NCBI GenBank assembly: GCA_900540865.1
Contig: UQHH01000055.1
Location: 1-18,418 of the forward strand
DNA length: 18,418 nucleotides
Direction of reading: 5' to 3'
Source: an uncultured Oscillospiraceae bacterium
Lineage (GTDB): Bacteria; Bacillota; Clostridia; Oscillospirales; Acutalibacteraceae
Shown here: in pieces, positions 169-18,418 of the stretch
Position numbering within the stretch: the first letter of the stretch is position 1
Layout of the letters: each line of letters opens with the position of its first letter
Program-made: the position numbers and the translations under genes
The notes under the pieces: generated by a model
What the model was told of the DNA's origin: nothing
Databases searched by the model: none
The model's input: the letters and a program-made list of their open reading frames with translations, nothing else

Positions 169-792
169 ATGAGAAATAGCACGAAATACTGCTGTATCGG
201 CCTGATACTCTCCCTGATTATCGGTATTGTCACGTTTGCACTTTTCTCCGCTGGAATCTTTGCAGTCACCGCGGTACCGGCGATTCTATTTTTTACAATT
301 GCCGTCGCATTGATTTTGCTGACCGCAATCCTATTTATCAGTGCTTTTATCAGAAAAACAAAAAGCGTAAGGAAAGCGCTGTGCAGCTGCGGCATGGCCG
401 CAATCGCAAGCGCCCTGCTTACCATCCTGCTTTCCGTTGCCGCCACATTGATACCCGTAACTACCGGCGTAGGCTTTTATGTGGTTGCGGCACTCATCGC
501 TTTTTTCCTTTCCTTCCTTTTATGGTCGGTCGGCAGCCTTTTATACCAGCTCAACGGCTGCGCGTGTGAAAAAATCTGTGTACGCAGGTGCGAATGCCTG
601 GAAGACGACGAATGCGTCTGCACACCGGCCGCAAACGAAGTGTCCTGCCAGAATATTTCGTCCTTCCAAAGCCCGAGCGTCTCTTATCCTGTCGGCGCCT
701 CCTGCCGTCAGACGGCCTCCACTTACCAAAACGGTATCTGCGGGACAAACGGGACGGTACAATATACGAACAACAACGGCTGCTGCAGGTAA
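169..792 (+). CDS. Hypothetical polytopic membrane protein (about 4 predicted TM helices) with a Cys-rich C-terminal tail (CxC...CxC...CxC...GCC).
   Basis: ATG at 169 preceded by a weak SD (agaaagaag). N-terminal ~150 aa is strongly hydrophobic with helix-length segments. C-terminal ~55 aa carries 13 Cys in CxC/CC pairs. Codon usage is consistent with neighbouring genes. A rho-independent terminator lies 130 nt downstream. Confidence 0.5.
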   Translation: MRNSTKYCCIGLILSLIIGIVTFALFSAGIFAVTAVPAILFFTIAVALILLTAILFISAFIRKTKSVRKALCSCGMAAIASALLTILLSVAATLIPVTTGVGFYVVAALIAFFLSFLLWSVGSLLYQLNGCACEKICVRRCECLEDDECVCTPAANEVSCQNISSFQSPSVSYPVGASCRQTASTYQNGICGTNGTVQYTNNNGCCR

Positions 793-960: not shown

Positions 961-1357
961 ACAAGCATGGTTCGCAGCAGGATTAAAATAAATTGTATTA
1001 TTTATCTTTTTGAGAGAAAAAAACTCGAATTTTTATTGAAATGGAATATATTTCAATTGTAATATATTGTCGAATCTTAAAACAAATAACGACAATAAAA
1101 TCATAAATAAGTACAAAATAGTTTTTTAAATAAAAAATTTTTATATATTTTGACGAAATTTATTCGTGAAAAAATTTCACATTTAGCGAAAAACACGCTT
1201 GTAAAAAATAGACGAACAGGTTAGAATAATGGCGGATTAAATAGTATACTATTATCAAAATCCTACCCAAATAATCTGTTTTTGCAAAAACAAGCAGACC
1301 ACGATTCAAACCCAACACATCACATTTCAAACCCAATTTACATGTAGGAGGTAAATC

Positions 1358-3835
1358 ATGTCAACATTACAGAGAAAAGGCAGGATTGGTATCTCGCTGG
1401 TTTTGGCGCTCTTGATGGTATTCAGTGTCGTTGCAACAGTATCTGCTGCCGACACCGCCGCCAATTCGATTGTCGCTCCGACGGTAGGGCCCGACTATGC
1501 AGGAAACAGTACAATTTACGCTTACGGCGGCGGCGATTCCGCTTCCAAGGATTCTTGGATTAGCTGGAAGGGCGCGTCCGACGGCACAAAATATCTGTGC
1601 CTCCCCTCCAGCGTAGACAGGAACGTCTATTTCTATTCGACTTATTCAAGCAACGTGACCGTTGAAAACATAAAAGACGCATCCGATAAGTTTACGCTTA
1701 CGTCAAATGCGGTCAGCGGCCCGTTTGCAATCGGCACAACAAAAACATACCAGGTGAAGAGCGGAAGCACTGTCCTTTACACCTTGAAATTCAGGCTTTC
1801 CGAGGCGGAAGGCGCCCTGTTCATTACAACAACTGACAAGAACGGCAATTATGTCGACAACTGGAACTATCTCTGCCAGGATAAGGAAAATTCCTCCGCG
1901 GGCAGGTGGGTTGTCTCGGCAAACGGCGGTACCTCTAAGCTCGGCGACCTCAAGAAAATCAAGGGCAGGGGCAACTCCACATGGACAAAGAGCAAAAAGC
2001 CCTTTAACATCACGCTCGATTCCAAGGAAAAGCTGCTCGGCATGAACAAAGGCAAGAAGTTCTCCCTGCTTGCCAACTATCAGGAAGGCACGCTCATGCG
2101 CAACCGCCTCCTGTACGACATGGCTGACGAGGTTGGCCTGAACTATTCGCCTGATTCCCGTTTTGTAGAATTCTATGTCAACGGCTCCTACAAGGGCTCC
2201 TACCAGATGTCTGAAAAGGTTGAGCTCGGCAAGGACAACATGGTAAAGATTACCGACCTTGAAAAGAATACGGAAGAAAAAGCCATTGAAGTAACGGGCG
2301 ATCCCGATTACGATGTATATGGCATCTACGAGACAGAAGAGCATCAGGTACAGGCCGACTACAACGGCGGCAAAATTTATTACTACGATATTCCCGCTGA
2401 ATACAACCCCGACGATATTACGGGCGGTTACCTGTTTGAGTGCGACACCAAGGCAAACTCCGCAGGCGACTGGAACAAGTTTGAAACTCCGAAGGGACAG
2501 GTTGTTACCGTTAAGAGCCCGGCTGCCATGACAGAAGCACAGGTCAAGTACCTGTATGACTACTATGTAGCAATGGAAACAGCCGTGTATGGCACGACCG
2601 ATACCTACAAGAATTACATGGACATCGAGTCCGTGGCAAAGGCATACATGATTGCTGAAGTCGGTAAGAACATCGACGGCGGCATCACGAGCACAGACTT
2701 CTACAAAGACGCCGCTACCGGCCAGAACGGCGGTAAAATCTCCGGCGGCCCGGTTTGGGACTACGACTGCGCAATCGGCAACCTCTACGGCTCCAGAAAG
2801 AGCGTTTCCGGCGTAACCTACAACACCAACGACCCGATTGGCTGGTTCAACCGCTATATCCAGAACGCAGATAACGGCAAGGTTCCGACAATCTTTGCGG
2901 CTGCCTGCCAGCATGCAGACTTCTGGACAACAGTCAAGACGGTTTGGAACGACGAATTCGTCGACGCAATCAAGGTTGCAAACGGCGAGCAGGCCGCTAC
3001 AGGCAGCAGGATGAAGTCCATTGCCGAATACAGCGCAATGCTTCAGAAATCTGCCGACATGAACTACCTGTTCAACCCGTTCCCGTATTACAACAACAAC
3101 GGCGACTTCACATGGATTCCCTGCACGGACACGACCTACACAGGCCATGTCGCTTTCATGCAGAACTGGCTGAACACCCGCGCTGAATGGCTTAACACGA
3201 AGCTCGGTACAAGCACGACCCAGACGATTTATTACAACAACAGCTTCACAAATTGGAGCAAGGTATACGCATACGCTTGGAACGACGGCGACGGCACAAC
3301 GAACGCTGCATGGCCCGGACAGGCTATGACGGCGGTTGTCGGAACCAACGGCTACTACAAGCTCGACCTCGGATTGTTTGACCATGTTATCTTCAACAAC
3401 GGCACGAACGGACAGACAATCGACCTCGACCTCGCGGCCGACAGCTATGTGTTCAAGTCCAACGCAATCGACCATACCTATGGCGGCACCACCTATTATA
3501 AGGGCGAGTGGTCGAAGTTCGACAACACGACCAAGACTATCTACTTTGACAACGCGGCAACGAACTGGACGAACCTGAGCGCTTCTTACTGGGGCGGCGG
3601 CGTCGACCAGGCATGGCCGGGCACGGCTATGACGCTTGTCAGCGGTACCATCTATAAGGTAGAAATCCCGGGTGGCTGCACGAACATCATCTTTAACAAC
3701 GGCGGCAACAAAAAGCAGACCGCTACGCTCGTCCCGCAGGACGGCAAGCTCTATGTAGCAAGCAATACGGTCATCGGCACCGACTACTACGGCAACTCGA
3801 TTTACGGCGGCGACTGGGCAAGCTACACACCCTGA
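1358..3835 (+). CDS. Secreted CotH-family (atypical kinase fold) protein with two C-terminal CBM25/CBM26-like starch-binding repeats, 825 aa.
   Basis: Strong RBS (gtaggaggtaaatcATG). Signal peptide MSTLQRKGRIGISLVLALLMVFSVVATVSAAD. The central region carries the CotH hallmark segments (KIKGRGNSTW..KKPFNITLD; LMRNRLLYDMADEVGL; VEFYVNGSYKGSYQMSEKVE). The C-terminus carries two repeats with the W..VYAYAW...AWPG.AMT...G.YK...IFNNG signature of amylase-type starch-binding modules. Confidence 0.8.
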   Translation: MSTLQRKGRIGISLVLALLMVFSVVATVSAADTAANSIVAPTVGPDYAGNSTIYAYGGGDSASKDSWISWKGASDGTKYLCLPSSVDRNVYFYSTYSSNVTVENIKDASDKFTLTSNAVSGPFAIGTTKTYQVKSGSTVLYTLKFRLSEAEGALFITTTDKNGNYVDNWNYLCQDKENSSAGRWVVSANGGTSKLGDLKKIKGRGNSTWTKSKKPFNITLDSKEKLLGMNKGKKFSLLANYQEGTLMRNRLLYDMADEVGLNYSPDSRFVEFYVNGSYKGSYQMSEKVELGKDNMVKITDLEKNTEEKAIEVTGDPDYDVYGIYETEEHQVQADYNGGKIYYYDIPAEYNPDDITGGYLFECDTKANSAGDWNKFETPKGQVVTVKSPAAMTEAQVKYLYDYYVAMETAVYGTTDTYKNYMDIESVAKAYMIAEVGKNIDGGITSTDFYKDAATGQNGGKISGGPVWDYDCAIGNLYGSRKSVSGVTYNTNDPIGWFNRYIQNADNGKVPTIFAAACQHADFWTTVKTVWNDEFVDAIKVANGEQAATGSRMKSIAEYSAMLQKSADMNYLFNPFPYYNNNGDFTWIPCTDTTYTGHVAFMQNWLNTRAEWLNTKLGTSTTQTIYYNNSFTNWSKVYAYAWNDGDGTTNAAWPGQAMTAVVGTNGYYKLDLGLFDHVIFNNGTNGQTIDLDLAADSYVFKSNAIDHTYGGTTYYKGEWSKFDNTTKTIYFDNAATNWTNLSASYWGGGVDQAWPGTAMTLVSGTIYKVEIPGGCTNIIFNNGGNKKQTATLVPQDGKLYVASNTVIGTDYYGNSIYGGDWASYTP

Positions 3836-3930: not shown

Positions 3931-3966
3931 AAAAAAGCGGCGCGCCCTTAATGGGCACGCCGCTCG
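3931..3966 (-). terminator. Rho-independent terminator for the minus-strand GGDEF operon. Stem gcggcgcgccc/gggcacgccgc (one mismatch), loop ttaa, then a run of 6 U on the minus strand.
   Basis: Hairpin 3937-3963 with aaaaaa (3931-3936) on the plus strand, which reads UUUUUU after the hairpin on the minus strand. It sits 17 nt downstream of the 3983 stop. Confidence 0.55.
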
Positions 3967-3982: not shown

Positions 3983-5200
3983 TTAATCGGCGCGCATTTT
4001 CTTTTTTTGTTTTCCTGCATACATCCTCCGGTCCGCCTCATAAATCAGCGTATCAGGATTCCGGTACCCCGCCGCGTCGACAATGCCTATGCTCAAAGAC
4101 AAGTCAAACGGGTATTCCTCCGATTTGCTTTTCTCCTGCAATGCTTCCTGCACGTTTTGCAGCCTTTGCTCCGCCTGCGCGGTATCTACGCCGCCGAGAA
4201 GAATAATAAACTCATCTCCCCCATAACGGCAGAGAATATCCTTATCACCGGCACATACCTCCCCAAGCTGCTGCGCCACGGCGACGATATAGCGGTCGCC
4301 TGTCTGGTGCCCGAACTTATCGTTGACGTTTTTAAGGCCGTCCAAATCGGCAAAGCAAAGGCAAAAGCAGTCGCGTTTTTCCATTCGCTGTGTGAGCAGC
4401 ATAGAAAAATACTTCCGGTTGCAGCAGCCGGTCAGCGGGTCTGTATACGCAAGGAAATGAAGCTCGCTTTCCTCCTGCATCCGTTTTAAAAGCTCCTCAT
4501 GCACCGCGTGGTTCTGCTCGCGGTACCTGTTGAGCCTGCTCATTTTGTAGGCATAGAGCGTTGCGATATAATAGCCTATCAGTACGCTGATACAGGCCTT
4601 GATGACCCAGACTTTAAAAATCAGGTAATTTCCCGGCATGTAATAGACAAGCAGGTTTAAAAAGAGGTAGCAGTACATCGCAATCATGAGCCGCGTCGAA
4701 AATTTCAGGTTCGACGGGTCGGCCGCAATGGCGCTGACACGTTCCATCCATACTGTTTTTCTAATGACCTGAAAAACAATGCCGGCAAGGACAAACGCCG
4801 CAGCTACCGGCACAAATCTATATTCGTTGTTCGGGCTAGTGCCGTCAAAGGCAGAGGTAGGTACATTTTGCGCTATTGCCGCGACCGACCGGGAAAGGAT
4901 ATTGATGCTCAGGCCAATCAAAGCGCACGTAAAGCCGTGGAACACACCCTGCCGTACCGGGCATTTGAATAAAAGGGTGGTTTCGGCGACCAGAAAAACG
5001 GCAAACACCGTCCAGTTGACAATCAGGTGGAGCTGTAAATAGCTGCAGGCAATAAACAGGATATAATTGACCGCAAAGGTTGCGCCTATGCCCTTCCAGC
5101 GCGCGACGTTCCGCCCCGTCTGTTCCCCAATATATTGAAAATACTGCCAGTTGCAGTAAAAATACGCGGGGGAAAACAATAAAATGATAAGCAGCTGCAT
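3983..5200 (-). CDS. Membrane-anchored diguanylate cyclase (GGDEF domain). The N-terminal ~230 aa has multiple TM helices; the C-terminal part is a GGDEF domain with an RYGGDEF active-site motif.
   Basis: GGDEF-domain signature (DPLTGCCNRKYF ... RYGGDEFIILL) in the C-terminal ~170 aa; hydrophobic N-terminal half. The start ATG overlaps the upstream gene stop (TAATG). Confidence 0.85.
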   Translation of the reverse strand: MQLLIILLFSPAYFYCNWQYFQYIGEQTGRNVARWKGIGATFAVNYILFIACSYLQLHLIVNWTVFAVFLVAETTLLFKCPVRQGVFHGFTCALIGLSINILSRSVAAIAQNVPTSAFDGTSPNNEYRFVPVAAAFVLAGIVFQVIRKTVWMERVSAIAADPSNLKFSTRLMIAMYCYLFLNLLVYYMPGNYLIFKVWVIKACISVLIGYYIATLYAYKMSRLNRYREQNHAVHEELLKRMQEESELHFLAYTDPLTGCCNRKYFSMLLTQRMEKRDCFCLCFADLDGLKNVNDKFGHQTGDRYIVAVAQQLGEVCAGDKDILCRYGGDEFIILLGGVDTAQAEQRLQNVQEALQEKSKSEEYPFDLSLSIGIVDAAGYRNPDTLIYEADRRMYAGKQKKKMRAD

Positions 5201-6417
5201 TATGAACGTCCCCCTGACTGCCGGCTTTGCTTATCGGCATACATTTTGCGGTCGGCTTCGCTGATGAGCTGTTCGGCCGTCTTGGAGGAATGGGCGGGAA
5301 CCTCAACGACCCCAAAGCTGAACGACAGCGGAACCGCGCCCTGTCTGATAGCAGGCGCCTTTGCCCGGATTCCTTCCATTCGCGTATGTGCATGCAATTT
5401 GCCGCAATTTGGTAGTAAAATCAAAAATTCATCTCCGCCGATACGCGCAAAAATATCGCCTCGTTCAAGGTTTTCACGAATAAGCGACGAAAAGTCGAGC
5501 AGATAGCGGTCTCCTATCGTATGTCCAAACTCATCGTTGACCTGCTTTAAATGGTCAAGGTCGATATATACAAGCGCAAGCTGCTCACCACCCGTAAGCA
5601 GCAGGTTCATCTGCTCCATCGCAAACAGGCGCGTGTACGCGCCCGTCAAGCCATCGAGATACGCGGCAATCCGCAGCCTGCGCGCACGCCGCAAATGCTC
5701 CAGCTTTTGCCGTTCCAGCCGGTCGTGCTCTTCCTCGAGCCACGCGTTTTTCGTAATGGAGTAGACATGGCTCATAAATACATAAACCATCATCAGCAGC
5801 AAAAGCACGCTTCCAATCAAAAACAGCGCGGCAAAAGAACCCGGCAAATCGAACATGCTTGGTATACTGTCAAACAGAACATAACCCATTCCAAACCAGC
5901 TGAACCGGATGAGCAGCCGGAACTCTTCTCCGCTTTGGCCCATCAGACGGGATTTGTCGTTGATTTCTCCATTGTATATAATCACCAGCCCCGCAAGCAG
6001 GTCTGCAAGCGTCGCGATAATCAGACACAAATTTCGCATACTGAAGCTGGAAAGCAGCGCGTAGGTACTGGTTTGCAGAAAAAACGCCGTCACTCCCAGC
6101 ACGAGCAAGTGGACGCTTGCGAAAGCAAGTATCCCCATATCGGCGACAAACCAGCGGCAGACCATCCTGCCGCCGAGCAGCAGAAAAAAAAGGCATTTGC
6201 CGATAAAAAGCGTCAGGTAAAACACGGGCAGGGGTATTCCCCAAAGGCCCATTGCATAAAAAAACACAGCGGTAACCGCCATAAAACCAACAGCCCTCAA
6301 GCGTGGAATCTTCTCCCCCGGCTGAAGGATGGTAAAAAATTTCATTAAAATCAAATCGCAGGGCAAAACCAGCAGAACAAGCAAAGCCGGCAGCCCATAG
6401 TGGTACAAGGCAGGCAT
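5200..6417 (-). CDS. Second membrane-anchored diguanylate cyclase (GGDEF, RIGGDEF motif), paralogous and translationally coupled to the downstream gene.
   Basis: GGDEF signature (DGLTGAYTRLF ... RIGGDEFLILL); 6-7 hydrophobic helices N-terminally. The ATG at 6417 has a good SD (ggggagaagttATG). The ORF track's longer start at 6447 is a TTG without an SD. The stop overlaps the next start by 1 nt. Confidence 0.8.
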   Translation of the reverse strand: MPALYHYGLPALLVLLVLPCDLILMKFFTILQPGEKIPRLRAVGFMAVTAVFFYAMGLWGIPLPVFYLTLFIGKCLFFLLLGGRMVCRWFVADMGILAFASVHLLVLGVTAFFLQTSTYALLSSFSMRNLCLIIATLADLLAGLVIIYNGEINDKSRLMGQSGEEFRLLIRFSWFGMGYVLFDSIPSMFDLPGSFAALFLIGSVLLLLMMVYVFMSHVYSITKNAWLEEEHDRLERQKLEHLRRARRLRIAAYLDGLTGAYTRLFAMEQMNLLLTGGEQLALVYIDLDHLKQVNDEFGHTIGDRYLLDFSSLIRENLERGDIFARIGGDEFLILLPNCGKLHAHTRMEGIRAKAPAIRQGAVPLSFSFGVVEVPAHSSKTAEQLISEADRKMYADKQSRQSGGRS

Positions 6418-6750
6418 AACTTCTCCCCACTCTCTTGCGCACGGCAAAGAACCGGCGCGGCTTACGGCCCAAAATGGCCGCAGCCATCAAATATAATCTT
6501 CTCCAAAGTATTCCGTTCAAAAAGCAATCGTTACGCCCGGCTGCCCAGGCAATCCATAATATGATACCTCCGCGGTCCTGGAAGAGCCACCCTTGCTCCT
6601 GCCATACAGCGCTGTGGTTTCACAGACAAAGACCGCTTTTTTATCATTCAAGGTTTCCCCATTTTCATAACTATAGTTTAACATATGTGTGAAAATAAAA
6701 CAACAGCCATTCCTGTTTTACATAATGCAAAATTTGCTGAATCCATAGCT

Positions 6751-6785
6751 AAAAGGGCGGGGCGCATAAAGCGCCCCGCCCTTTT
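6751..6785 (-). terminator. Perfect bidirectional rho-independent terminator aaaa-GGGCGGGGCGC-ataaa-GCGCCCCGCCC-tttt.
   Basis: 11-bp perfect GC stem flanked by A4 and T4, read directly. It lies immediately 3' of the minus-strand 60-aa gene / flotillin operon. Confidence 0.8.
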
Positions 6786-6787
6786 GC

Positions 6788-6970
6788 TTAGTCAAATTTG
6801 TTTTTGTTCCAGTAGTCGTAATCGCTTGCGTCCTCTTGTTTTTCGTCTAAACAATCTTCGCTGTTCTTAAAAAGGTTTTTTCCCATAGTATAGCTGTGGT
6901 CCGCAAACCGTGCATATGCCACCGCCGCCACCACAATGACTATCACGAGCATTATAATCGCTAAAACCAT
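6788..6970 (-). CDS. Small single-pass membrane protein (60 aa) at the distal end of the flotillin operon.
   Basis: N-terminal hydrophobic helix (VLAIIMLVIVIVVAAVAYA) and an acidic C-terminus. SD-like aggaaaggtgg upstream. It is only 27 nt from the flotillin stop and is followed by the strong terminator. Confidence 0.45.
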   Translation of the reverse strand: MVLAIIMLVIVIVVAAVAYARFADHSYTMGKNLFKNSEDCLDEKQEDASDYDYWNKNKFD

Positions 6971-6997
6971 TTGGCCGCCACCTTTCCTCTTTGCGGC

Positions 6998-8431
6998 TTA
7001 TTGCTCCTGTTCAGTCTGCGCAGCAAGCTCTTCGGAAACAGCCGCCGGTTCTGCCGGTGTTTCTTCTGTTTTTCCAAGCGGCTTGCCCAAAAATTCCGGC
7101 AGCGTCATTCCTGCCATCTGGAACATTTCGTTCATCGGAGGGATGGATTTCATCATACTGGACAAGAAATTCGACGTCGTAGACGCTCCGTCCTTGCCGC
7201 TCATTCCGTCCCACACGGTAACCTTGTCTATCTTGAGGTTCTTGACCGCTTCTACCTGTGTCCTGGTGAGCTCCTCGATTTTGTCTGCAATCATCAGCTT
7301 CATCGCGTCGTTTGCGCTGCCGCCAGCCGCAGAAACGATTTGCGCAAGGCCTGCGGCCTGTTTTGTGAGCATCTCCTGCACACCGCGCGCCTGCGCTTCC
7401 ATTTTGGCGTAAATCGCGTCCGCTTCGCCCTTGGCGCGGCGCCTGATTTGTTCTGCCTGCGCTTCCGCCTGCAGCTCCATCTTCCGTTTTTCAATTTCCG
7501 TTTTTACAATGACGTCGGCCTCAAGCGTCGCCTGTTCGCGCGCAAAACGAGCTTTTTCCGCTTCCTGTTCGGCGGCGTACGCTTCCTCTAACGCCCTTGC
7601 GGACTGTATCTTTTCCGCTGCTGTCGCGCGGCGCTGTGCCTCGGACCGCTTTTCTACAAGGGTAGCGTTCGATTCGGCAACCTGCGCCTTCGCCTCGTTT
7701 TCACCCTTGATGGCCTCTGAATCCGCCAACGAAACCTGTACGCGCTGCTCACGCTTTGCGTTTGCCTCGCCGATTGCGCCGGAACGGTCGGCCTCCGCTA
7801 CGGAAATTTTCGCGTCGTTGATGGCTTTTGCCGCGGCTTCCTTACCGAGTGCCGAAATATAACCGGATTCATCCGTAATATCCGTTACGTTGACATTAAT
7901 CAGACGCAGGCCGATTTTTTTCAGCTCTGTTTCCACGTTATTGGACACGGCTGCCAGAAACTTGTCGCGGTCGGTGTTGATTTCTTCAATGTCCATCGTC
8001 GCGATGATGAGCCTCAGCTGCCCAAAGATGATGTCCTTGGCGAGCTCCTGGATTTCTGTGAGCTTCATGCCGAGCAGCCGCTCCGCCGCGTTCTGCATAA
8101 CGCCCGGCTCGACAGACACGCCCACCGTAAAGCGGGACGGCACGTCGATACGGATGTTCTGCTTGGACAGCGCGTTTTTCAAATCGACCGGTATGGAAAT
8201 CGGCGTCAAATCCAGGTATTCATATGCCTGGATGACCGGCATGATAAACGCCGCGCCGCCGTGGATGCACTTCGCGCTGCGTGAGGTGCCGTCCTTATTG
8301 GAGCCGATTTTACCGTATACGACGAGAATTTTGTCCGACGGGCACTTTCTGTACCGTGATAAAAGGACGATGAGAGTCGTAAACAATAAAACGACGATAA
8401 CGCAAATTAGAATAATTATGGCTGGATCCAT
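6998..8431 (-). CDS. floT: Flotillin-like SPFH/band-7 protein (FloT/YuaG-type), 477 aa. N-terminal TM anchor, SPFH domain, long Ala/Glu-rich coiled-coil region.
   Basis: N-terminal hydrophobic helix. The SPFH-like segment resembles bacterial flotillins. The EA-rich repeats (AEQEAEKARFAREQATLEAD...) are typical of FloT. Gene order nfeD-floT is as in B. subtilis yuaF-floT. The SD is gagggggaa. Confidence 0.85.
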   Translation of the reverse strand: MDPAIIILICVIVVLLFTTLIVLLSRYRKCPSDKILVVYGKIGSNKDGTSRSAKCIHGGAAFIMPVIQAYEYLDLTPISIPVDLKNALSKQNIRIDVPSRFTVGVSVEPGVMQNAAERLLGMKLTEIQELAKDIIFGQLRLIIATMDIEEINTDRDKFLAAVSNNVETELKKIGLRLINVNVTDITDESGYISALGKEAAAKAINDAKISVAEADRSGAIGEANAKREQRVQVSLADSEAIKGENEAKAQVAESNATLVEKRSEAQRRATAAEKIQSARALEEAYAAEQEAEKARFAREQATLEADVIVKTEIEKRKMELQAEAQAEQIRRRAKGEADAIYAKMEAQARGVQEMLTKQAAGLAQIVSAAGGSANDAMKLMIADKIEELTRTQVEAVKNLKIDKVTVWDGMSGKDGASTTSNFLSSMMKSIPPMNEMFQMAGMTLPEFLGKPLGKTEETPAEPAAVSEELAAQTEQEQ

Positions 8432-9108
8432 TGTGAAATTCCCCCTCTGTTTTGATTGGATTGTCCCGTAACCGGCTCGACCTGTACCGTCTGTTCGTCG
8501 ATGACCGCGCTTACGCGTACCGGCGTACCGGTCGGGATTTGCTGCTGTGATTTGGTCACCGCGTCGAGCTCTACCAAACGCTCCTGCAGCATAATCGTAA
8601 TTTTACCCTGTCCCTTTTCGCACGCGGGTACCGGGATATAAACCTTTCCCGCTTTCCCCAATGCGTTTTCAACGTTCAGGTTGCCCTTATCCTGCAGCCT
8701 GAACGCGTATTTGAACAACAGCGCAATGCCCACCAGGGCAGCCGCGCCCGCAAGGAACGCAAGGCCGACCGCAAACCCGGCGTTAAGATATTTTGACAAG
8801 ACAAGTCCCGTCCAGCCTCCGACCGCAAAGAACGCGACCAGGCCGCGCACCGTAAAGAGCCGAAGTCCCGGGTCGACGTCTTCCCCGCCGTCCGCTTCTC
8901 CGTGATGGAGGTCTCCATGGAAATCGCCGTGCGCGTCCATGTCCACATCCATATCTGTGTCCGCGTCCAAACCGTCCACGTCAGCGTGGTCAAATCCGAA
9001 CCCAAACAGCAGCATAATGGATTGGATAACCAGAATAATCGTTGCAGGCGCCGCAATACATACGAAAACCTGCTGGAGCAACGTCATGGCGTTCCACCAT
9101 TCCCACAT
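8416..9108 (-). CDS. nfeD: NfeD-family membrane protein (YuaF-like) with a C-terminal OB-fold beta-barrel and an unusual Asp/His-rich insert.
   Basis: TM segments, then a C-terminal segment (GKVYIPVPACEKGQGKITIMLQERLVELDAVT...VRVSAVIDEQTVQVEPV) typical of short NfeD proteins. It overlaps floT by 16 nt. The SD is aaggggag. The insert DHADVDGLDADTDMDVDMDAHGDFHGDLHHGEADGGEDVD is not typical of NfeD. Confidence 0.75.
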   Translation of the reverse strand: MWEWWNAMTLLQQVFVCIAAPATIILVIQSIMLLFGFGFDHADVDGLDADTDMDVDMDAHGDFHGDLHHGEADGGEDVDPGLRLFTVRGLVAFFAVGGWTGLVLSKYLNAGFAVGLAFLAGAAALVGIALLFKYAFRLQDKGNLNVENALGKAGKVYIPVPACEKGQGKITIMLQERLVELDAVTKSQQQIPTGTPVRVSAVIDEQTVQVEPVTGQSNQNRGGISQWIQP

Positions 9109-9135
9109 AATTCTCCCCTTCTTTCTGTACCAGAA

Positions 9136-9777
9136 TCAGTTCATCGGCTGTTCTTCCGTCGCTTTGGAAATCCCGTTATCCATGACCTGTTCAAACAATG
9201 CGTCCGCCCGCTTTTTAACGATAGAAGACGCATAGTAGGTCAGGATAATCCGCATTCCACCCAGCAGGCGCTTACGCGCGCCGGCATACGGCTCCGGCGT
9301 ATGTACGACGGCGTGCTCCACCATTTCCTCAAATTCCCCCTCGGTAAGCACCGTTTCAAAATCCATTTGGTCGAGTAGCGTACACAAAAAGCAGTAAAGC
9401 TGCGCGTCTGAAATTACATGTCCCTGCGCGTTGTCCGCTTCCCCGTTCGTGTAGGCCAAAAGCAGGGCGATTTGGTCAAGCTTCATGACGCCGCGCAGCA
9501 TGTTTATCATGATGATACGCGCGACATGGTTCTCACTGTACCGTTTATCGACCGGCTTCTGTACCCAGCCGCGGTTGACCCAGTTCTGGATTGCGGGAGT
9601 ATCGAGCCCCGTAATCTCGCGGACCTGCGCCAGCATCAGTCCCTTTGTAACGGAAAAAACACCGCCGAAAAAATCCTGCGCGCTCCTGTCCTTCCGTTCC
9701 ACTACCGTACCGGGAAAATAAGCCACACGTCCGCCCCCTTTCTCAACCTGTGGATTTGCCATGATTATACTACACAT
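9136..9777 (-). CDS. DUF1836-like protein with a MerR-type HTH (…ITGLDTPAIQNWVNRGWV..KRYSENHVARI…). It is the first gene of the nfeD-floT operon. Start uncertain.
   Basis: The HTH-like segment followed by the KRYS..H motif matches my recollection of the DUF1836 family. No convincing SD before either candidate ATG (9777 or 9762), so the start is approximate. 28 nt upstream of nfeD. Confidence 0.55.
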   Translation of the reverse strand: MCSIIMANPQVEKGGGRVAYFPGTVVERKDRSAQDFFGGVFSVTKGLMLAQVREITGLDTPAIQNWVNRGWVQKPVDKRYSENHVARIIMINMLRGVMKLDQIALLLAYTNGEADNAQGHVISDAQLYCFLCTLLDQMDFETVLTEGEFEEMVEHAVVHTPEPYAGARKRLLGGMRIILTYYASSIVKKRADALFEQVMDNGISKATEEQPMN

Positions 9778-9789
9778 TCATTTGAATGT
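9774..9789. promoter_or_regulatory. Perfect 7-2-7 palindrome ACATTCA-tt-TGAATGT at the 5' end / promoter of the DUF1836-MerR-like gene; candidate operator.
   Basis: Palindrome read directly from the sequence. MerR-type regulators typically bind dyads in their own promoter region. It lies in the divergent region between the 9136..9777 gene and the EndoQ-UvrD gene. Confidence 0.3.
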
Positions 9790-9949
9790 AAAGTACATTC
9801 TTAAGAATTTTTTGTGAAAATCATAAGTTGATTTTTTAGAGCTGAACGTAATTTTTCAAATAAAAGGAAGATACATTGTATTGCATACAAAAATGAAAAA
9901 GAGTATAATAGGATTTATCTTAAAAAGACAAAACAGGCAGGTGACTAGG

Positions 9950-12900
9950 ATGTACATTGCTGATTTACATATCCACTCCAAATACTCCCGCGCGACGAGT
10001 AAGGAATGCGTTCCCGAGTACCTTGATTTGTGGGCAAGGCGCAAGGGAATCGACCTAATCGGCACGGGCGATTTTACCCATCCAGCGTGGCGTGAGGAAT
10101 TAAAGGAAAAGCTTGCTCCGTCTGAGGAGGGGCTTTATATCCTCCGGGACAGCGCGCGTATTTCAGACCCGACTGTTCTGGGTACAAAGCAGACGCGTTT
10201 TGTCGTATCGGGAGAAATCAGCTCTATTTATAAAAAGAACGGCAAGGTACGCAAGGTGCATAATGTCATTCTACTGCCATCACTTGAGGACGCGGACACG
10301 CTCGCGCATAAGCTTGAGGCAATCGGGAATGTCCATTCAGACGGACGGCCGATTCTCGGCCTAGACAGCCGCGATTTGCTTGAAATCACGCTGGAAAGCT
10401 GCCCCCAGGCGGTGTTTATTCCCGCGCACATCTGGACTCCGCACTTTTCGCTGTTCGGCGCGTTTTCCGGCTTCGATACGATTGAGGAATGCTTTGAGGA
10501 CCTGACTCCGTATATCCACGCGCTGGAAACGGGCCTATCCTCCGACCCGCCGATGAACTGGCGCGTTTCGGCGCTCGACCGTTACAGCCTTGTATCGAAC
10601 TCCGACGCGCATTCCCCCGCAAAGCTTGGGAGGGAAGCCAATATTATAAATGCCGAGCTTTCCTATCCCGCGCTCAAAAAAGCGCTGGAAGGCGGCGCTG
10701 GCGAGGGCTTCGGCGGCACCATCGAATTTTTTCCTGAGGAAGGGAAATACCATTTTGACGGGCACCGCGGCTGCGGGCTGTGCCTGACGCCCGCACAGTC
10801 TGAGGAATACGGCGGGAAATGCCCGGTCTGCGGCAAAAAGATTACCATAGGCGTACAGCACCGCGTGGAGGAGCTTGCGGACCGCGCGGAGGGCTTTGTA
10901 TTGCCAAACGCTGCGCCCTTTGAAAGCCTCGTCCCGCTGCCGGAGGTGCTCGCCGCCTCCACCGGCTACAGCGCCGCGGGTAAAAAGGTCGCGGCTTTAT
11001 ATGAGGAGCTTCTGTACACAATCGGCTCTGAATTTTTCATCCTCCGGCAGGCGCCGCTGGAAGAAATCGGCCTTACAGCCGGGCCGTGTATCCGCGAGGG
11101 AATCCGCCGCCTTCGTTTGGGACAGGTGCGCCGCGACCCAGGCTATGACGGCGCGTATGGGGTTATCCATATTCTGGAACGGGACGAAATCGAAAGCTTG
11201 AGCGGGCAAATCAGCCTGTTTGGCGCCGCGTCCTCCGCAGACTGGCATACAAAAGCGAGCACGAAGCTTATCCGGAAAAAGAAATCCGCGGAGGTTCCAA
11301 AGGAAGAAACGGCTGCCGCGGAACAAAAGGCGGCTTCGCAGGATTTACTTTCCGGACTCAACGCGGAACAAAAACAAGCCGTGACCTTGCCCCCCTTCGG
11401 CGCCGCCGCAATTATCGCGGGGCCCGGCACCGGCAAAACAAAGACGCTGATTTCCCGCATTGCTTATTTAATAGAGGAATGCGGCGTAAAAGCGCGCGAC
11501 ATAACCGCTGTTACCTTTACAAACAAGGCGGCGAAGGAAATGCGCGAACGCCTCACGCAGCAGCTCGGCTCCAAACGCGCGGCGGCAGGCGTAACCGTAG
11601 GAACATTCCATTCTATTTGCCTGCAAAAGCTAAAAAAAGAGAAGGAGAGCATTACGCTTTTAGACGAATATGAGGCGCTCGAGACAGCGGGCGGTATTAT
11701 AAAAGACCTGAAAATAAAAATAACCCCGCGCGAATTTTTGCGCGAGGTATCGAACAAAAAAAACGGCGTGCCTTTAAAGTACCCTGAGCTGATGGAAGAG
11801 GCGTTCGGCCTCTACTGCGCACGCGTCAGCGAACTGGGGCTGATGGATTTTGACGACCTGCTGCTGGAGGCGCTTGCGCTTTGCGGAGACGCTCATAAGA
11901 AAAATGAAGGCAGCCATTTGCTGGTCGATGAATTCCAGGACATCAACCCGGTTCAGTATCGGTTAATCAGGGAATGGAACAGGACAGGACAGAGCCTGTT
12001 CGTCATCGGCGACCCAGACCAGGCGATTTACGGCTTCCGCGGGAGCGACGCCCATTGCTTTGAACGCCTGCGTGGTGATTATCCTGAGCTCCATGTCATC
12101 CGCTTGACGGAAAATTACCGCTGCTCGCCTGAAATCCTCAGCTGTTCGCTTTCGGTCATCTCCCAAAATTCCGGAGCTTCGCGCACGCTTTCCGCCAACC
12201 GCCCGCCGCAGGGAAGGGTTTTTCTGCGCACCTCGGAAAGCTCCCTGTCGGAAGCAATTTTTGTCGCCAAGGAAATCAACCGTATGGTCGGCGGTATCGA
12301 TATGCTCGACGCGCAGGCGCTCACAGAGCCGCGCGGCGCGCAGCTTTCCCGCAGCTTTTCCGATATCGCCGTGCTTTGCCGCACGCACCGGCAGGCGCGC
12401 CTGCTCGAGATGTGCCTGCGCAAGGAAAGCATCCCCTATATTGCCGCCGGACGCGACGATTTCCTTTCCGACGAAGCGGTGCGCGGCGTATCCGGCTTCT
12501 TCCGGTTCCTGCTTGAACAAAACGACGTGCCCGCCCTGCGCACAGCGCTGAAAAACGTTTGGAGATGTCCGGCGGATTTGGTTCAAAGCTTCTGCGACGC
12601 GCTGAAAAACGCGGGAGAGGCCGGACTGCACGCCGTCCTGGAGGAATATAAAAACGCGGGGCCGCTTAAGTCTTGTATTGAACAAATCATGGAATTCCTT
12701 CCCCGTGCGCATAAAGCAAAGCCGCGCAAATTATTAGAGGAATTTGCTGAGAAAAACAGCCTTACAGAGCACGAGCCGCTTATGCAGTTTATGAATATGG
12801 CCGTGTTCCATAAGGACATGGGCTCCTTTATGCAAACGCTTCTGCTGGGCGAGGAAGCCGATATGGAACGCAGCCCGGCTAAAACCTATCCCGCCGACGC

Positions 12901-13195
12901 CGTGCGCCTGATGACGCTCCACGGCGCAAAGGGGCTTGAATTCCCTGTCGTGTTCCTCTGTGGCGTAAAAAGCGGCAGCATCCCGCTGGAAGCGCAGGGA
13001 CGTGAAACCGATATGGAAGAGGAGCGCCGCCTGTTCTTCGTCGGCATGACGCGCGCAAAGGACGAGCTGTTCCTGATGGGCTCAAAGCAGGAGCCGTCCG
13101 TCTTCCTAAACAGTATTCCGCGGGAGCAGCTGCATACGGCGCCTGTCAGGGAACACACCCAGCGCAAGGATGTACAGCTGAGCCTGTTTGATTAA
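9950..13195 (+). CDS. Fusion protein: N-terminal EndoQ-like PHP-domain endonuclease (with a CxxC...CxxC zinc finger) joined through a Lys/Ala-rich linker to a complete UvrD/PcrA-type SF1A DNA helicase. 1082 aa from the ATG at 9950.
   Basis: N-terminus MYIADLHIHSKYSRATSKE...GIDLIGTGDFTHP is the characteristic endonuclease Q start, and HRGCGLC...CPVCGKK forms a C4 finger. Helicase motifs are all present: Q (LNAEQKQAV), I (AGPGTGKT), Ia (TFTNKAA), II (VDEFQD), III (GDPDQAIYGFRGSD), IV (ENYRCSPEIL), V (LHGAKGLEF), VI (VGMTRAKDEL). The SD is aggtgactaggATG; the ORF track's earlier start at 9881 lacks an SD. Confidence 0.85.
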   Translation: MYIADLHIHSKYSRATSKECVPEYLDLWARRKGIDLIGTGDFTHPAWREELKEKLAPSEEGLYILRDSARISDPTVLGTKQTRFVVSGEISSIYKKNGKVRKVHNVILLPSLEDADTLAHKLEAIGNVHSDGRPILGLDSRDLLEITLESCPQAVFIPAHIWTPHFSLFGAFSGFDTIEECFEDLTPYIHALETGLSSDPPMNWRVSALDRYSLVSNSDAHSPAKLGREANIINAELSYPALKKALEGGAGEGFGGTIEFFPEEGKYHFDGHRGCGLCLTPAQSEEYGGKCPVCGKKITIGVQHRVEELADRAEGFVLPNAAPFESLVPLPEVLAASTGYSAAGKKVAALYEELLYTIGSEFFILRQAPLEEIGLTAGPCIREGIRRLRLGQVRRDPGYDGAYGVIHILERDEIESLSGQISLFGAASSADWHTKASTKLIRKKKSAEVPKEETAAAEQKAASQDLLSGLNAEQKQAVTLPPFGAAAIIAGPGTGKTKTLISRIAYLIEECGVKARDITAVTFTNKAAKEMRERLTQQLGSKRAAAGVTVGTFHSICLQKLKKEKESITLLDEYEALETAGGIIKDLKIKITPREFLREVSNKKNGVPLKYPELMEEAFGLYCARVSELGLMDFDDLLLEALALCGDAHKKNEGSHLLVDEFQDINPVQYRLIREWNRTGQSLFVIGDPDQAIYGFRGSDAHCFERLRGDYPELHVIRLTENYRCSPEILSCSLSVISQNSGASRTLSANRPPQGRVFLRTSESSLSEAIFVAKEINRMVGGIDMLDAQALTEPRGAQLSRSFSDIAVLCRTHRQARLLEMCLRKESIPYIAAGRDDFLSDEAVRGVSGFFRFLLEQNDVPALRTALKNVWRCPADLVQSFCDALKNAGEAGLHAVLEEYKNAGPLKSCIEQIMEFLPRAHKAKPRKLLEEFAEKNSLTEHEPLMQFMNMAVFHKDMGSFMQTLLLGEEADMERSPAKTYPADAVRLMTLHGAKGLEFPVVFLCGVKSGSIPLEAQGRETDMEEERRLFFVGMTRAKDELFLMGSKQEPSVFLNSIPREQLHTAPVREHTQRKDVQLSLFD

Positions 13196-16070: not shown

Positions 16071-16340
16071 TTCCTTTTACTTTTTCTATTCCTTTTATAA
16101 AAAGAATTTTTATGATTTCTCTTTTATAGCTTTTTACTGATTTTTAAGAAACGTACTTTTCTTGGATTTAAAACTTATTATGTTAATTCAAAACGACGGG
16201 AACCGTGTATTGGTTTCCTCTTTCTCATTTTGAAGCATACTGCTTTTTGTTTTTTTATTTGAAACGTATCCGTTTCTTTTTAATAAACCAAACATTCTGG
16301 TTCTTGAATTTCTTCATCAAACTTTCTATGTTATCTTTTT

Positions 16341-16577
16341 CAAAAGGAAGAAACCGTTTTCGCCGGTTTCCTCCTTTTGGAATCTTCTTTCCGGCGACAG
16401 GGAAAACCTCGTCGCAGGTTTTCCCTTGACCCTTTCCAGCCGAGCAAGGGGCTTCGCCCCTTACAATCCCTGTTTTATAGTAAGCTTGACCGTTCCTCGT
16501 TTTGTGTACGGGTTGTAGAAACGGTACTACGGGACCGCCCAGCGCCGCGCCTGCGCGCGGAGTTCTTCGTGGGTGCG
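16341..16577 (-). repeat. Copy A of a ~235-bp hairpin-dense element (candidate structured ncRNA or cis-regulatory/boundary element). It is oriented on the minus strand relative to copy B.
   Basis: ~88% identical to the reverse complement of 18157..18391. It contains at least five stem-loops read from the sequence: CCGCGC-GCAG-GCGCGG; GUAG-N8-CUAC; GGGGC-GAA-GCCCC; GGGAAAACC-UGCGACGA-GGUUUUCCC; and a 16-bp stem CAAAAGGAGGAAACCG/CGGUUUCUUCCUUUUG. Confidence 0.6.
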
Positions 16578-16773
16578 TTTTTTTAATGAAGCATACTGCT
16601 TCTTGTTTTTCTTCATGAATTTTTCTATGTAGGTACAGTTCTTTCCTTGTATATGGAGTACTTCATAGGTGCGGTACCTCCTTATACGGTTTACTGGTAA
16701 CGGCATAATTTCAGTAAATAGAAGAATTTATTCTGCAATTTGCTGATGTGCCGTTTTACTGGTTTTCTGTCTG

Positions 16774-17142
16774 CTAGACAATATTTACGGGGAACGGTAG
16801 GGCATCTTCCAGTAAGGCCGCAAGCATCAGGCGCGCCCCCAGCCGGTAGCCCTGCGTAAAGCTTTCTATACTCGCTATGTCCAGCAAGTCCTGCTGGCCT
16901 TTCTCCAGATATTCGGTAAACAGCGCCTCGTGCTCTTTGCCGAGCTGCCTCAATATTTCGTCCTCCGGTTTTTTCATCCTCTCTACAGCCTTCTGGTATG
17001 CGGGCGTTGATTTCAAGATACCGGGCTTGATGTCCCCGTAATATAGCTGTTCCAGAATAGGCGTGCTTTCTTCCGCCTTCTGTTCGGGAATACCGCTTTC
17101 CTTTATAAACGGCTGGGTCTGTGCCTTTTTCTCCTTTTTCAT
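16774..17142 (-). CDS. Hypothetical protein, 122 aa. Lys/Glu-rich N-terminus, conserved YYGDIKPG segment, helical C-terminus. Third gene of a three-gene minus-strand cassette.
   Basis: Strong SD (ttGGAGGaagacatATG). The start overlaps the upstream stop (ATGA). No family recognised. Confidence 0.6.
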   Translation of the reverse strand: MKKEKKAQTQPFIKESGIPEQKAEESTPILEQLYYGDIKPGILKSTPAYQKAVERMKKPEDEILRQLGKEHEALFTEYLEKGQQDLLDIASIESFTQGYRLGARLMLAALLEDALPFPVNIV

Positions 17143-17456
17143 ATGTCTTCCTCCAACTGCTCTATGTCATTCTGCCTGCCGCAGCAGGATTTCAGCATAT
17201 TTGTGACAAAGCCGTATCCATTGCCTATGTCATCGTACGCACAGCTTTTATTTAGACACCAATGCACGCACGCCAGGACAAAACGATTTATTTGAAAGTT
17301 ACGCTGCTTTCTGTCCATATCCAGTTCGTCGTCGAGCAGCAGGTAGTTTTCAAAGCATCCTACCGCAAAGCCGATTTGCTCCAAAATCTTGTTATCCAGC
17401 AAAAACGGGTAGTTACTTTCATCATAGGGCGGCGGTAATTTCAATTCTAAATTCAT
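17139..17456 (-). CDS. Hypothetical small protein, 105 aa, paralogous to the gene immediately upstream (shared LE.IGFA N-terminal motif, conserved Cys positions, LKSCCGRQN C-terminal motif).
   Basis: SD GGGAGG 8 nt before the ATG. The start abuts the upstream stop (no gap). The paralogy is seen by aligning the two translations by eye. Confidence 0.6.
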   Translation of the reverse strand: MNLELKLPPPYDESNYPFLLDNKILEQIGFAVGCFENYLLLDDELDMDRKQRNFQINRFVLACVHWCLNKSCAYDDIGNGYGFVTNMLKSCCGRQNDIEQLEEDI

Positions 17457-17753
17457 TTAATTTTCCTCCCTTATCTTTTTATTCTGTTTCCCGCAGCTTA
17501 ATTTCAGGCACAAAGCAATCGTTTCACAAGCGTCTTCTGCTTCCGTTTCCCTGTCACAGGCGCAGAGGCTTGCCGCCAAATATGCAAGGCAAAAATAATC
17601 TTCATACTCAGACTTTCCAAACGGTACCACGTCAAACACACGGAAAATATTAAACGCCCTGCTTGCAAACCCGATTTTCTCGAGCACGCCTGTATCAAGC
17701 TCCGTTTCCTCCAACAGCTCTAAAAGCACTTTCTTTTCCACCATGTCATTCAT
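17457..17753 (-). CDS. Hypothetical small protein, 98 aa (from the second ATG), Cys-containing (C-x8-C-x-C-x8-C ... LKLSCGKQN). First gene of the cassette operon.
   Basis: GGAGG lies 6 nt before the second ATG (17753); the first ATG (17759) directly abuts the SD. Paralogous to the 17139..17456 product. A perfect TATAAT -10 lies on the minus strand at 17820-17825. Confidence 0.6.
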   Translation of the reverse strand: MNDMVEKKVLLELLEETELDTGVLEKIGFASRAFNIFRVFDVVPFGKSEYEDYFCLAYLAASLCACDRETEAEDACETIALCLKLSCGKQNKKIREEN

Positions 17754-17831
17754 AAACATCCTCCTAGAAAATTAAGCTATGGCAACTTAAAACAAATGCT
17801 AAATAAATGTCTAACAAATATTATAAGCGTT

Positions 17832-17897
17832 TGTTTTGTGTTCTTTAATTTTGAATATACCACACTTGTGTTCTGTTTGCAACACTTTTGTGGTGTT
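17832..17897. promoter_or_regulatory. Divergent promoter/operator region between the cassette operon (-) and the XRE gene (+): reiterated TTGTGTT / ACACTT(TT)GTGGTGTT motifs and a GTGTT-N8-AACAC dyad; candidate binding sites for the adjacent XRE regulator.
   Basis: Direct repeats ACACTTGTGTT (17862-17872) and ACACTTTTGTGGTGTT (17882-17897); TTGTGTT also at 17836-17842; dyad GTGTTctgtttgcAACAC at 17868-17885. All read from the sequence. Confidence 0.3.
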
Positions 17898-17927
17898 TTA
17901 TGTTATAAAATTTCTGGAGGTGACAAA

Positions 17928-18149
17928 ATGTACTATTATACAGAAAGGCTTACAAATTTAAGAGAAAAAAATGGTTTGACAAAAAAACAGGTTGCAGATG
18001 CAATAGGAGTAAAACCGGAGCAATACAGGCGCTATGAAATTGGACAAAATGAAATAAAGGCAAGTCACATTGTGAAATTTGCTGAATTCTATCATGTTTC
18101 TGCTGACTATATTTTGGGATTAACAAAGGATAAAAGAAAATTTTGGTGA
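17928..18149 (+). CDS. XRE-family (Cro/cI-type) helix-turn-helix transcriptional regulator, 73 aa.
   Basis: HTH_3 signature (LRELREKNGLTKKQVADAIGVKPEQYRRYEIGQNEIKASHIVKFAEFYHVSADYILG). SD GGAGGTGA 7 nt before the ATG at 17928; the ORF track's start at 17796 is an upstream in-frame extension without an SD. Confidence 0.8.
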   Translation: MYYYTERLTNLREKNGLTKKQVADAIGVKPEQYRRYEIGQNEIKASHIVKFAEFYHVSADYILGLTKDKRKFW

Positions 18150-18156
18150 AAATACT

Positions 18157-18391
18157 TCACTCACAAAGTATTCCGCGCGAAGGCGCGGCGCTGAGCGGTC
18201 CCGTAGTATCTTTTCTACAACCCGTACATAAAACGAGGAACGGACAAGCTGTCTATAAAACGGGGATGGTAAGGGGCGCAGCCCCTTGCTCGGCTGGAAA
18301 GGGTCAAGGGAAAACCTGCGACGAGGTTTTCCCTGTCGGCGGAAAGGTGATTGCAAAAGAGGAAAACCGCCGAAACGGTTTCCCTCTTTTG
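18157..18391 (+). repeat. Copy B of the ~235-bp hairpin-dense element, inverted relative to copy A. It lies immediately 3' of the XRE gene and 5' of an MKK... ORF start at 18411 that is cut by the window end.
   Basis: See copy A. Identical stems, with differences concentrated in loops. The terminal 16-bp stem shows two compensatory base-pair swaps relative to copy A (G-C/A-U changed to A-U/G-C). Confidence 0.6.
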
Positions 18392-18418
18392 AATAAACAT
18401 ATAAAGTTTTATGAAGAA

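Follow-up and report, generated by a model that had tools for sequence, protein, structure and literature searches.

The window analyzed here, a stretch of 18,418 nucleotides (nt) from an uncultured Oscillospiraceae bacterium (contig UQHH01000055.1), carries near its left end a plus-strand gene for a protein of 825 amino acids (aa), in which a predicted signal peptide and an N-terminal beta-sandwich precede a CotH kinase-fold domain and two C-terminal carbohydrate-binding modules (CBMs) of family CBM26. We describe the identities and fold of these domains, the conservation of the catalytic and sugar-contacting residues, the absence of a dockerin or other anchor, and the recurrence of the same fusion in relatives. 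The gene is laid out as follows:

1346..1351, plus strand: ribosome-binding site AGGAGG, 6 nt 5' of the ATG, read directly from the sequence.
1358..3835, plus strand: coding sequence of the putatively secreted CotH-CBM26-CBM26 protein, 825 aa, stop codon counted in.
1358..1447, plus strand: Sec-type signal peptide, aa 1-30, with predicted cleavage between VSA and AD, from sequence features.
1490..1942, plus strand: N-terminal beta-sandwich, about aa 45-195, a domain confined to secreted CotH proteins of this clade.
1943..3202, plus strand: CotH kinase-fold catalytic domain, aa 196-615, from Pfam PF08757, Foldseek and hhalign.
2669..2782, plus strand: active-site motifs KNIDGG (N438, D440) and PVWDYDCAIGN (W467, D468, D470, N475), from hhalign against Bacillus cereus CotH.
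3206..3511, plus strand: CBM26 module 1, aa 617-718, from Pfam PF16738 and HMMER alignments to the CBM26 modules of Amy16 and Sas6.
3524..3832, plus strand: CBM26 module 2, aa 723-825, the second Pfam stretch, aligned to the CBM26 of Amy16.

A Pfam scan of the protein returned two families only, CotH and CBM26. The CotH match (PF08757; E = 2.7e-29; 103.2 bits against a cut-off of 23.8) spans aa 201-612 and takes in the whole profile, positions 1-322 of 322. An AlphaFold2 model was built from 30 homologs (mean predicted local distance difference test score, pLDDT, 88; predicted template-modeling score, pTM, 0.81), and its top Foldseek matches in the PDB were the structures of B. cereus CotH, 5jda and 5jd9 (E = 7e-11, probability 1.00, TM 0.68 on the target). 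As modeled, the CotH domain thus matches the atypical protein-kinase fold of B. cereus CotH, and the family and fold searches together bear out the CotH kinase-fold core that a sequence-only reading of this DNA had proposed.

To place the catalytic residues, the family profile was aligned by hhalign with B. cereus CotH (94% probability, 310 columns). A database search with the 75-aa fragment of 5jd9 had given fragments only, and for that reason the B. cereus sequence was rebuilt; it matches 5jd9 at 100% identity in the part shown there. The B. cereus-group cotH gene in question lies on an ENA contig (L082, 2200-3800), where frameshifts, probably assembly errors, divide it into three called open reading frames (ORFs). 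The alignment pairs KNIDGG (N438, D440) with QNFDGF of B. cereus CotH, PVWDYD (W467, D468, D470) with IPWDYD, and IKGRGN...KKPFNI with IVYRGA...KKSYHV. With phmmer and with a local profile, the N-lobe alone or nothing was aligned to B. cereus CotH, and the C-lobe stayed unaligned. In Bacillus subtilis CotH, D228 is the catalytic Asp and D251 the metal-binding Asp, and the substitutions D228Q and D251A each inactivate the enzyme (Freitas et al. 2020). Because the first Asp and the Asp of the WD pair are separated by 23 residues, as are D228 and D251, we take D440 as the likely catalytic residue and D468 as the likely metal ligand.

These positions are under strong constraint. Across 193 non-identical relatives, K213, E434, D440 and D470 are invariant (193/193), D468 is kept in 192 (99.5%) and N475 in about 99%, and the pattern is alike in the 86 relatives that carry CBM26 and the 107 that do not. 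The only relative in which the equivalent of D468 is replaced is P0008 (687 aa, 37% identical), which reads PVWSFD and keeps the second Asp. Such constraint on the active site at about 30% overall identity points to an enzyme that has retained catalysis; the comparison with B. cereus CotH that the sequence-only reading had recommended accordingly finds D440, D468 and D470 in place and close to invariant. The N-terminal beta-sandwich has conserved residues of its own, W70 and P83, the latter in an FLPSS motif.

The two C-terminal units, of about 100 aa each, are 38% identical to one another (BLASTP E = 7e-18) and were matched by Pfam CBM26 (PF16738) in two stretches (E = 6.4e-21; 74.7 bits, cut-off 28.1), with no match to CBM25 (PF03423) at E <= 1. 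They had been assigned from sequence to CBM25/CBM26 on the strength of short motifs, which are present as VYAYAW...AWPGQAMT...IFNNG in unit 1 and SASYW...AWPGTAMT...IFNNG in unit 2; that there are two starch-module units and that they are CBM26 was borne out by profile, fold and motifs, and their identity as CBM25 was rejected on the Pfam result. By sequence they match the CBM26 modules of Ruminococcus bromii Amy16 (phmmer, 9qf9, E = 1.2e-16), and the CBM26 of R. bromii Sas6 is also matched by the family profile. In the AlphaFold2 model they are predicted to have the CBM25/26 beta-sandwich fold, the Foldseek matches in the PDB being the CBM26 pair of Eubacterium rectale Amy13K (6b15, E = 1.3e-8), the Bacillus halodurans CBM25 (2c3x and 2c3w) and CBM26 (2c3h), and R. 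bromii Sas6 (7uww).

In the CBM26 of Sas6, Y55 and W63 form the stacking surface for the ligand and Y53 hydrogen-bonds to it, and the equivalent of W63 is essential in another CBM26 (W32 of LaCBM26) (Sas6 preprint). HMMER alignments place W641 and W652 at the aromatic platform of module 1, where the hydrogen-bonding Tyr is kept as Y639, and W745 and W753 at that of module 2, where the equivalent of Y53 is S743. The stacking pair is therefore intact in both copies, and since the platform is kept in both, starch targeting is the natural reading: the modules would bind starch or malto-oligosaccharides.

At the other end of the protein, the first 30 residues, a call made by eye, show a basic n-region (RKGR), a hydrophobic core and an AXA-like site. 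A hydrophobic N-terminus is common to the homologs, and the segment appears in the AlphaFold2 model as a single helix of low confidence. No lipobox Cys occurs in residues 1-30, so this is not a lipoprotein signal; the n-h-c features, the cleavage site and the lack of a lipobox all agree with export by a signal peptide, as first proposed. Inspection and a motif search of the protein found no LPXTG, SLH or any other anchor, and a dockerin was likewise absent, with no PF00404 match in Pfam and no dockerin-like motif in the motif search; the C-terminal end is CBM26 module 2 itself. These features suggest a protein that is Sec-exported, soluble and not anchored.

An identical protein (P0001) is encoded on two metagenome contigs with its neighbors unchanged, and orthologs at 87%, 60% and 56% identity keep the same architecture. 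The 87% ortholog occupies the same part of the chromosome and has other genes inserted on each side, the 56% ortholog sits elsewhere, and the close orthologs are found in housekeeping contexts. As to the host, the anaerobic ribonucleotide reductase NrdD encoded on an overlapping contig shares 92% identity with its counterpart in Candidatus Scatavimonas merdigallinarum, 83-84% with those of Acutalibacteraceae metagenome-assembled genomes (MAGs) and 80% with that of [Clostridium] leptum, which places the host among the uncultured gut Clostridia of the Oscillospiraceae/Acutalibacteraceae group; the best CotH match in the species-level genome collection is 34% identical.

An exhaustive search of 1.84 billion cluster representatives gave 970 proteins at E <= 1e-30. 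Source names of relatives point to ruminant, deer, goat, rabbit, chicken and human guts, and in NCBI the nearest clusters, which come from Ruminococcus or Clostridiales MAGs, are named "starch-binding protein" or "CotH kinase family protein". CBM26 is present in 42 of the 120 nearest protein clusters, together with a type I dockerin in 28 of those 42. When the 52 nearest representatives at 50% identity, of up to 1500 aa, were scanned with Pfam, 50 had CotH, 25 CBM26, 22 a dockerin, 6 CBM25 and 2 CBM53, while CBM2, CBM6, CBM35, CBM49 and a lamin-tail domain occurred once each; some relatives bear cellulose- or xylan-binding modules in place of the starch modules. A local census counted CBM26, in one to five copies, in 93 of 206 CotH proteins. 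The modules lie directly C-terminal to the catalytic domain (as in the clade of the window protein), between a helical linker and a dockerin, at the N-terminus, or repeatedly in giant multi-CBM26 proteins, and these arrangements, at least four in number, are spread over four CotH clades. The clade of the window protein (nine sequences) has one or two CBM26 and never a dockerin (0/8 for P0001-P0008). The combination had been thought unusual; counts of 42 in 120 clusters and 25 in 52 representatives contradict this for the lineage, and fusion of CotH to CBM26, CBM25 or CBM53 is common in the Acutalibacteraceae/Ruminococcus gut lineage.

Several MAGs hold more than one CotH locus. In the rumen MAG RUG122 (L003) two CotH genes stand in tandem (5096-7594 and 7601-10027), one with two CBM26 and the other with a dockerin. 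The giant CotH proteins, of 2000-2400 aa, have four or five CBM26 flanking the catalytic domain and come from Ruminococcus MAGs of herbivore guts (L039, 6870-14123; L045, 6765-13409; L047, 7128-13565; L037, 7161-13148).

Four known systems can be set beside the window protein. The CotH of B. subtilis and B. cereus (PDB 5JD9, 5JDA) belongs to the same Pfam family and has a kinase-like fold and the NxDG and WDxD catalytic Asp motifs in common with it. The Bacillus protein, however, is of about 360 aa and lacks a signal peptide, an N-terminal beta-sandwich and a CBM, all three of which the window protein has, and its targets are the coat proteins CotB and CotG in the mother cell, whereas the window protein is predicted to be exported. 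Identity between the window protein and B. cereus CotH is 15-21%, and the window protein has insertions at about aa 290-345 and 476-510.

The second comparison is with the CotH-dockerin proteins, non-CAZyme parts of bacterial and fungal cellulosomes, such as CseP/Cthe_0044 and Cthe_0239 of Clostridium thermocellum, Ccel_1101 of Ruminiclostridium cellulolyticum and the CotH-dockerin proteins of anaerobic fungi. Like them, the window protein joins an extracellular CotH domain (extracellular here by prediction) to an address module of a polysaccharide-degrading apparatus, and many of its close homologs bear type I dockerins, as cellulosomal CotH does. The cellulosomal proteins attach by dockerin to cohesins in systems acting on plant cell walls, whereas the window protein has two CBM26 and no dockerin. 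The third comparison is with "spore coat protein CotH (CBM37)" of Ruminococcus albus 7 (gene 1044), which is secreted, is 4.09-fold up on cellulose versus cellobiose, and has CotH fused directly to a CBM and not to a dockerin; the ligands of CBM37 are diverse and include cellulose and the cell surface, in contrast to the alpha-glucan expected for CBM26. For cellulosomal CotH, a role as a structural component and/or as a regulatory kinase has been put forward in a review, and reviews to December 2025 leave its function undefined. Searches that combined CotH with CBM26, amylosome, starch binding or R. bromii returned no relevant paper in the literature searched, which agrees with the earlier description of such a fusion as functionally unexplained.

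The fourth system is that of R. bromii, whose Sas6 and Amy16 have CBM26 modules homologous to those of the window protein, with the aromatic platform conserved. In R. bromii, CBM26 is found on amylases or on Sas6 and CotH occurs with a dockerin, whereas the window protein carries CotH and CBM26 together and no dockerin. The secreted CotH of R. bromii ATCC 27255 (L072, 7920-9974) is 33% identical, with a C-terminal dockerin and no CBM26, and is a presumptive amylosome component. The amylosome papers found do not name it, and a 2025 study speaks only of dockerin proteins "of unknown function". Doc22 of that study was considered as a CotH and rejected, being a starch-adherence protein. For the window protein, a tie to a starch-degrading complex of the cell surface, which the sequence-only reading had offered as one possibility, does not extend to a cohesin-based amylosome, since there is no dockerin to make the link.

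The gene appears to form a transcription unit of its own, bounded by the following elements:

919-946: terminator after the upstream 207-aa membrane-protein ORF, from a terminator scan.
1045..1265, plus strand: conserved upstream block, a putative promoter/operator, about 90% identical upstream of the 87% ortholog in L083.
3935..3965, no strand assigned: GC-rich hairpin with T-runs on both sides, from a terminator scan (13-pair stem, 10 GC pairs).

The hairpin is likely a bidirectional terminator shared with the convergent GGDEF gene, and since terminators isolate both sides the CotH gene would be monocistronic. An AT-rich spacer of 565 bp lies 5' of the gene and includes the upstream block of about 220 bp, which stays with the gene in L083 even though the upstream neighbor differs there. 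Inside the block are a sigma-70-like promoter site, TTGTAA-17-TAGAAT (1199-1227), and, directly 3' of the promoter-like -10, a perfect 14-bp palindrome, AATAGTATACTATT (1240-1253), which occurs once in the window against 0.04 expected by chance. The palindrome is found upstream of the orthologs in L001, L002, L083 and L084 only, and at none of the other loci; we regard it as a candidate operator. Rfam gave no match in the window, and hence no riboswitch, and a scan for CcpA catabolite-responsive (cre) sites gave chance-level matches in the window and none in the promoter.

The upstream ORF (169-792, plus strand, 207 aa), to which Pfam assigns no family, encodes several hydrophobic stretches and a C-terminal tail rich in Cys. 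L001 and L002 carry this ORF as well; in L083 and L084, which hold the 87% relative, a dlt-like cluster (AMP-binding protein, small carrier-like ORF, MBOAT) takes its place. Downstream on the minus strand are tandem paralogous diguanylate cyclases (GGDEF; 3983-5200 and 5200-6447), in each of which the N-terminal half, about 250 aa long, is a multi-pass membrane region that belongs to no Pfam family; the pair adjoins the Band_7 gene in the 87% relative too. The other genes of the window encode an SPFH/Band_7 protein, a DUF1836/MerR-like protein, a UvrD-like helicase, Fur, a polysaccharide deacetylase, an amidase and a helix-turn-helix (HTH) protein. The UvrD/PcrA-like helicase (9881-13195, plus strand, 1104 aa) has helicase domains that start at residue 493, preceded by 490 aa of no clear family, for which the L001 annotation gives a weak MJ0043_C match. 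From 16100 to 18418 the GC content falls to 41-46%, and the region, with a DUF6809 protein, two small minus-strand ORFs of unknown identity and a divergent HTH_3 regulator, may be a mobile-element remnant or a small regulatory cassette. A long ORF antisense to the CotH gene (1703-3475, minus strand, 590 aa) had no Pfam family match and was rejected as a gene; it is probably a shadow ORF, arising because the sense strand is poor in T (483 T in the 2478 nt of the CotH gene), which removes stop codons from the antisense frame.

Our preferred interpretation, to which we give a probability of about 0.6, is that the gene encodes a secreted, catalytically competent CotH phosphotransferase that is held on starch by its CBM26 modules and whose substrate is more likely a protein. 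Following Sec export, cleavage of the signal peptide would release a soluble enzyme, and the two tandem C-terminal modules would hold it on alpha-glucan, either starch granules or malto-oligosaccharide chains. The CotH domain would then transfer phosphate, taken from a nucleotide, onto a substrate located on the starch surface or at the interface between starch and cell, most likely a protein, for instance one of the secreted or surface proteins that work on the granule. The modules would on this account be an address and not a sign of a glucan substrate: because related catalytic domains bear address modules for starch, cellulose, xylan or cohesin, CBMs probably set the place of action, and a protein substrate is the likelier one. 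We read the window protein, by analogy, as the starch-system counterpart of cellulosomal CotH, and as one of many extracellular CotH proteins of Acutalibacteraceae and Ruminococcus gut bacteria, which together form a large and unstudied family with CBM26, CBM25 or CBM53 and/or a dockerin as address tags.

Several points weigh against a phosphotransferase at work on starch. The chief one is that an extracellular kinase needs ATP outside the cell, where supply in the gut lumen is limited; in recent papers an extracellular location for a kinase is still described as "unexpected". That the protein is exported, binds starch and transfers phosphate is inferred, as is the kind of substrate it would use. 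With regard to the active site, D468 and not D470 is put forward as the equivalent of D251 on spacing alone, and the B. cereus reference in the alignment is a sequence rebuilt from a frameshifted contig. Genomic context lends no partner either: the neighbors at 40 CotH-CBM26 loci are a housekeeping mix in which no GH13, cohesin or other partner is enriched, and the 18-kb window itself holds no gene for an amylase, a cohesin or another CBM26 protein, so that the ability of the host to degrade starch is unproven. Cohesin-bearing scaffoldins were absent from the window and from two overlapping contigs.

The best of the other explanations, though an unlikely one, makes the protein an extracellular alpha-glucan kinase, whose CotH domain would phosphorylate the glucose units of the starch held by CBM26, loosen its crystalline packing and so help amylases. 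The outcome would equal that of the plant enzyme glucan, water dikinase, although fold and mechanism would differ. This reading would fit the finding that in many lineages the catalytic domain is fused directly to between one and five starch-binding modules, and it would fit the lack of a conserved protein partner encoded nearby. The secreted-kinase superfamily related to CotH does include sugar kinases, among them the xylose kinase Fam20B and POMK. However, catalytic domains as close as about 35-40% identity bear cellulose, xylan or dockerin modules, and that of R. albus bears CBM37, a variety of addresses that does not sit easily with the recognition of one particular sugar; the characterized CotH enzymes, moreover, all phosphorylate proteins, and the problem of extracellular ATP applies likewise. 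A wider form of this idea, which we rate slightly lower again, has a polysaccharide kinase, kept on the granule by its two CBM26, draw on luminal ATP to phosphorylate alpha-glucan chains at the surface and so break up the crystalline packing of resistant starch ahead of the amylases, as a bacterial, kinase-fold analog of the plant dikinase, with cellulosomal CotH doing likewise on plant cell-wall glycans.

It is improbable, by a little more still, that CotH here is a non-catalytic adhesin or structural protein, a module for binding or assembly that CBM26 would glue to starch. A parallel exists in the proposal for the CotH invasins of Mucorales and in one of the two roles proposed for cellulosomal CotH, for which a review lists the facilitation of assembly as a possibility, and the literature found reports no activity for any bacterial extracellular CotH. 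Against this, kinase residues that are near-invariant in 193 sequences at about 30% overall identity form the pattern of an enzyme and not of a scaffold.

A role as classical spore-coat protein H, the kinase that in Bacillus acts in the mother cell and patterns the spore coat, is very improbable: membership of the Pfam CotH family and the sporulation of many Clostridia of this group are in its favor, but the Sec signal peptide, extra N-terminal domain and two CBM26 have no counterpart in B. cereus CotH, to which identity is low, and the closest relatives bear dockerins or CBMs, which mark extracellular systems for polysaccharide degradation. For a protein of 825 aa with a signal peptide and extra domains, an identity as strict spore coat protein H (cytoplasmic, single-domain, about 360 aa) was rejected, and the name spore coat protein does not suit it.

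Extracellular CotH proteins have been listed as parts of cellulosomes for about two decades without a function, and the same enzyme is now seen wired to starch, recurrently, in the lineage of R. bromii, the keystone degrader of resistant starch. Because the link to starch recurs in several arrangements and the active site is strictly conserved, a general accessory role of extracellular CotH in the breakdown of polysaccharides is likely. The CotH-CBM26 architecture is not rare in sequence space, yet it is undescribed in the literature searched, and the window protein makes an easy test case, being soluble by prediction and free of a dockerin, with a defined ligand and predicted catalytic and binding residues. 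Should amylosome or surface proteins, or the glucan itself, be phosphorylated by such enzymes, a regulatory or chemical layer would be added to the degradation of fiber in the gut; should the window CotH prove inert, a long-standing annotation puzzle would be settled. In either case, the window CotH-CBM26 protein is a good experimental entry into the role of extracellular CotH enzymes.

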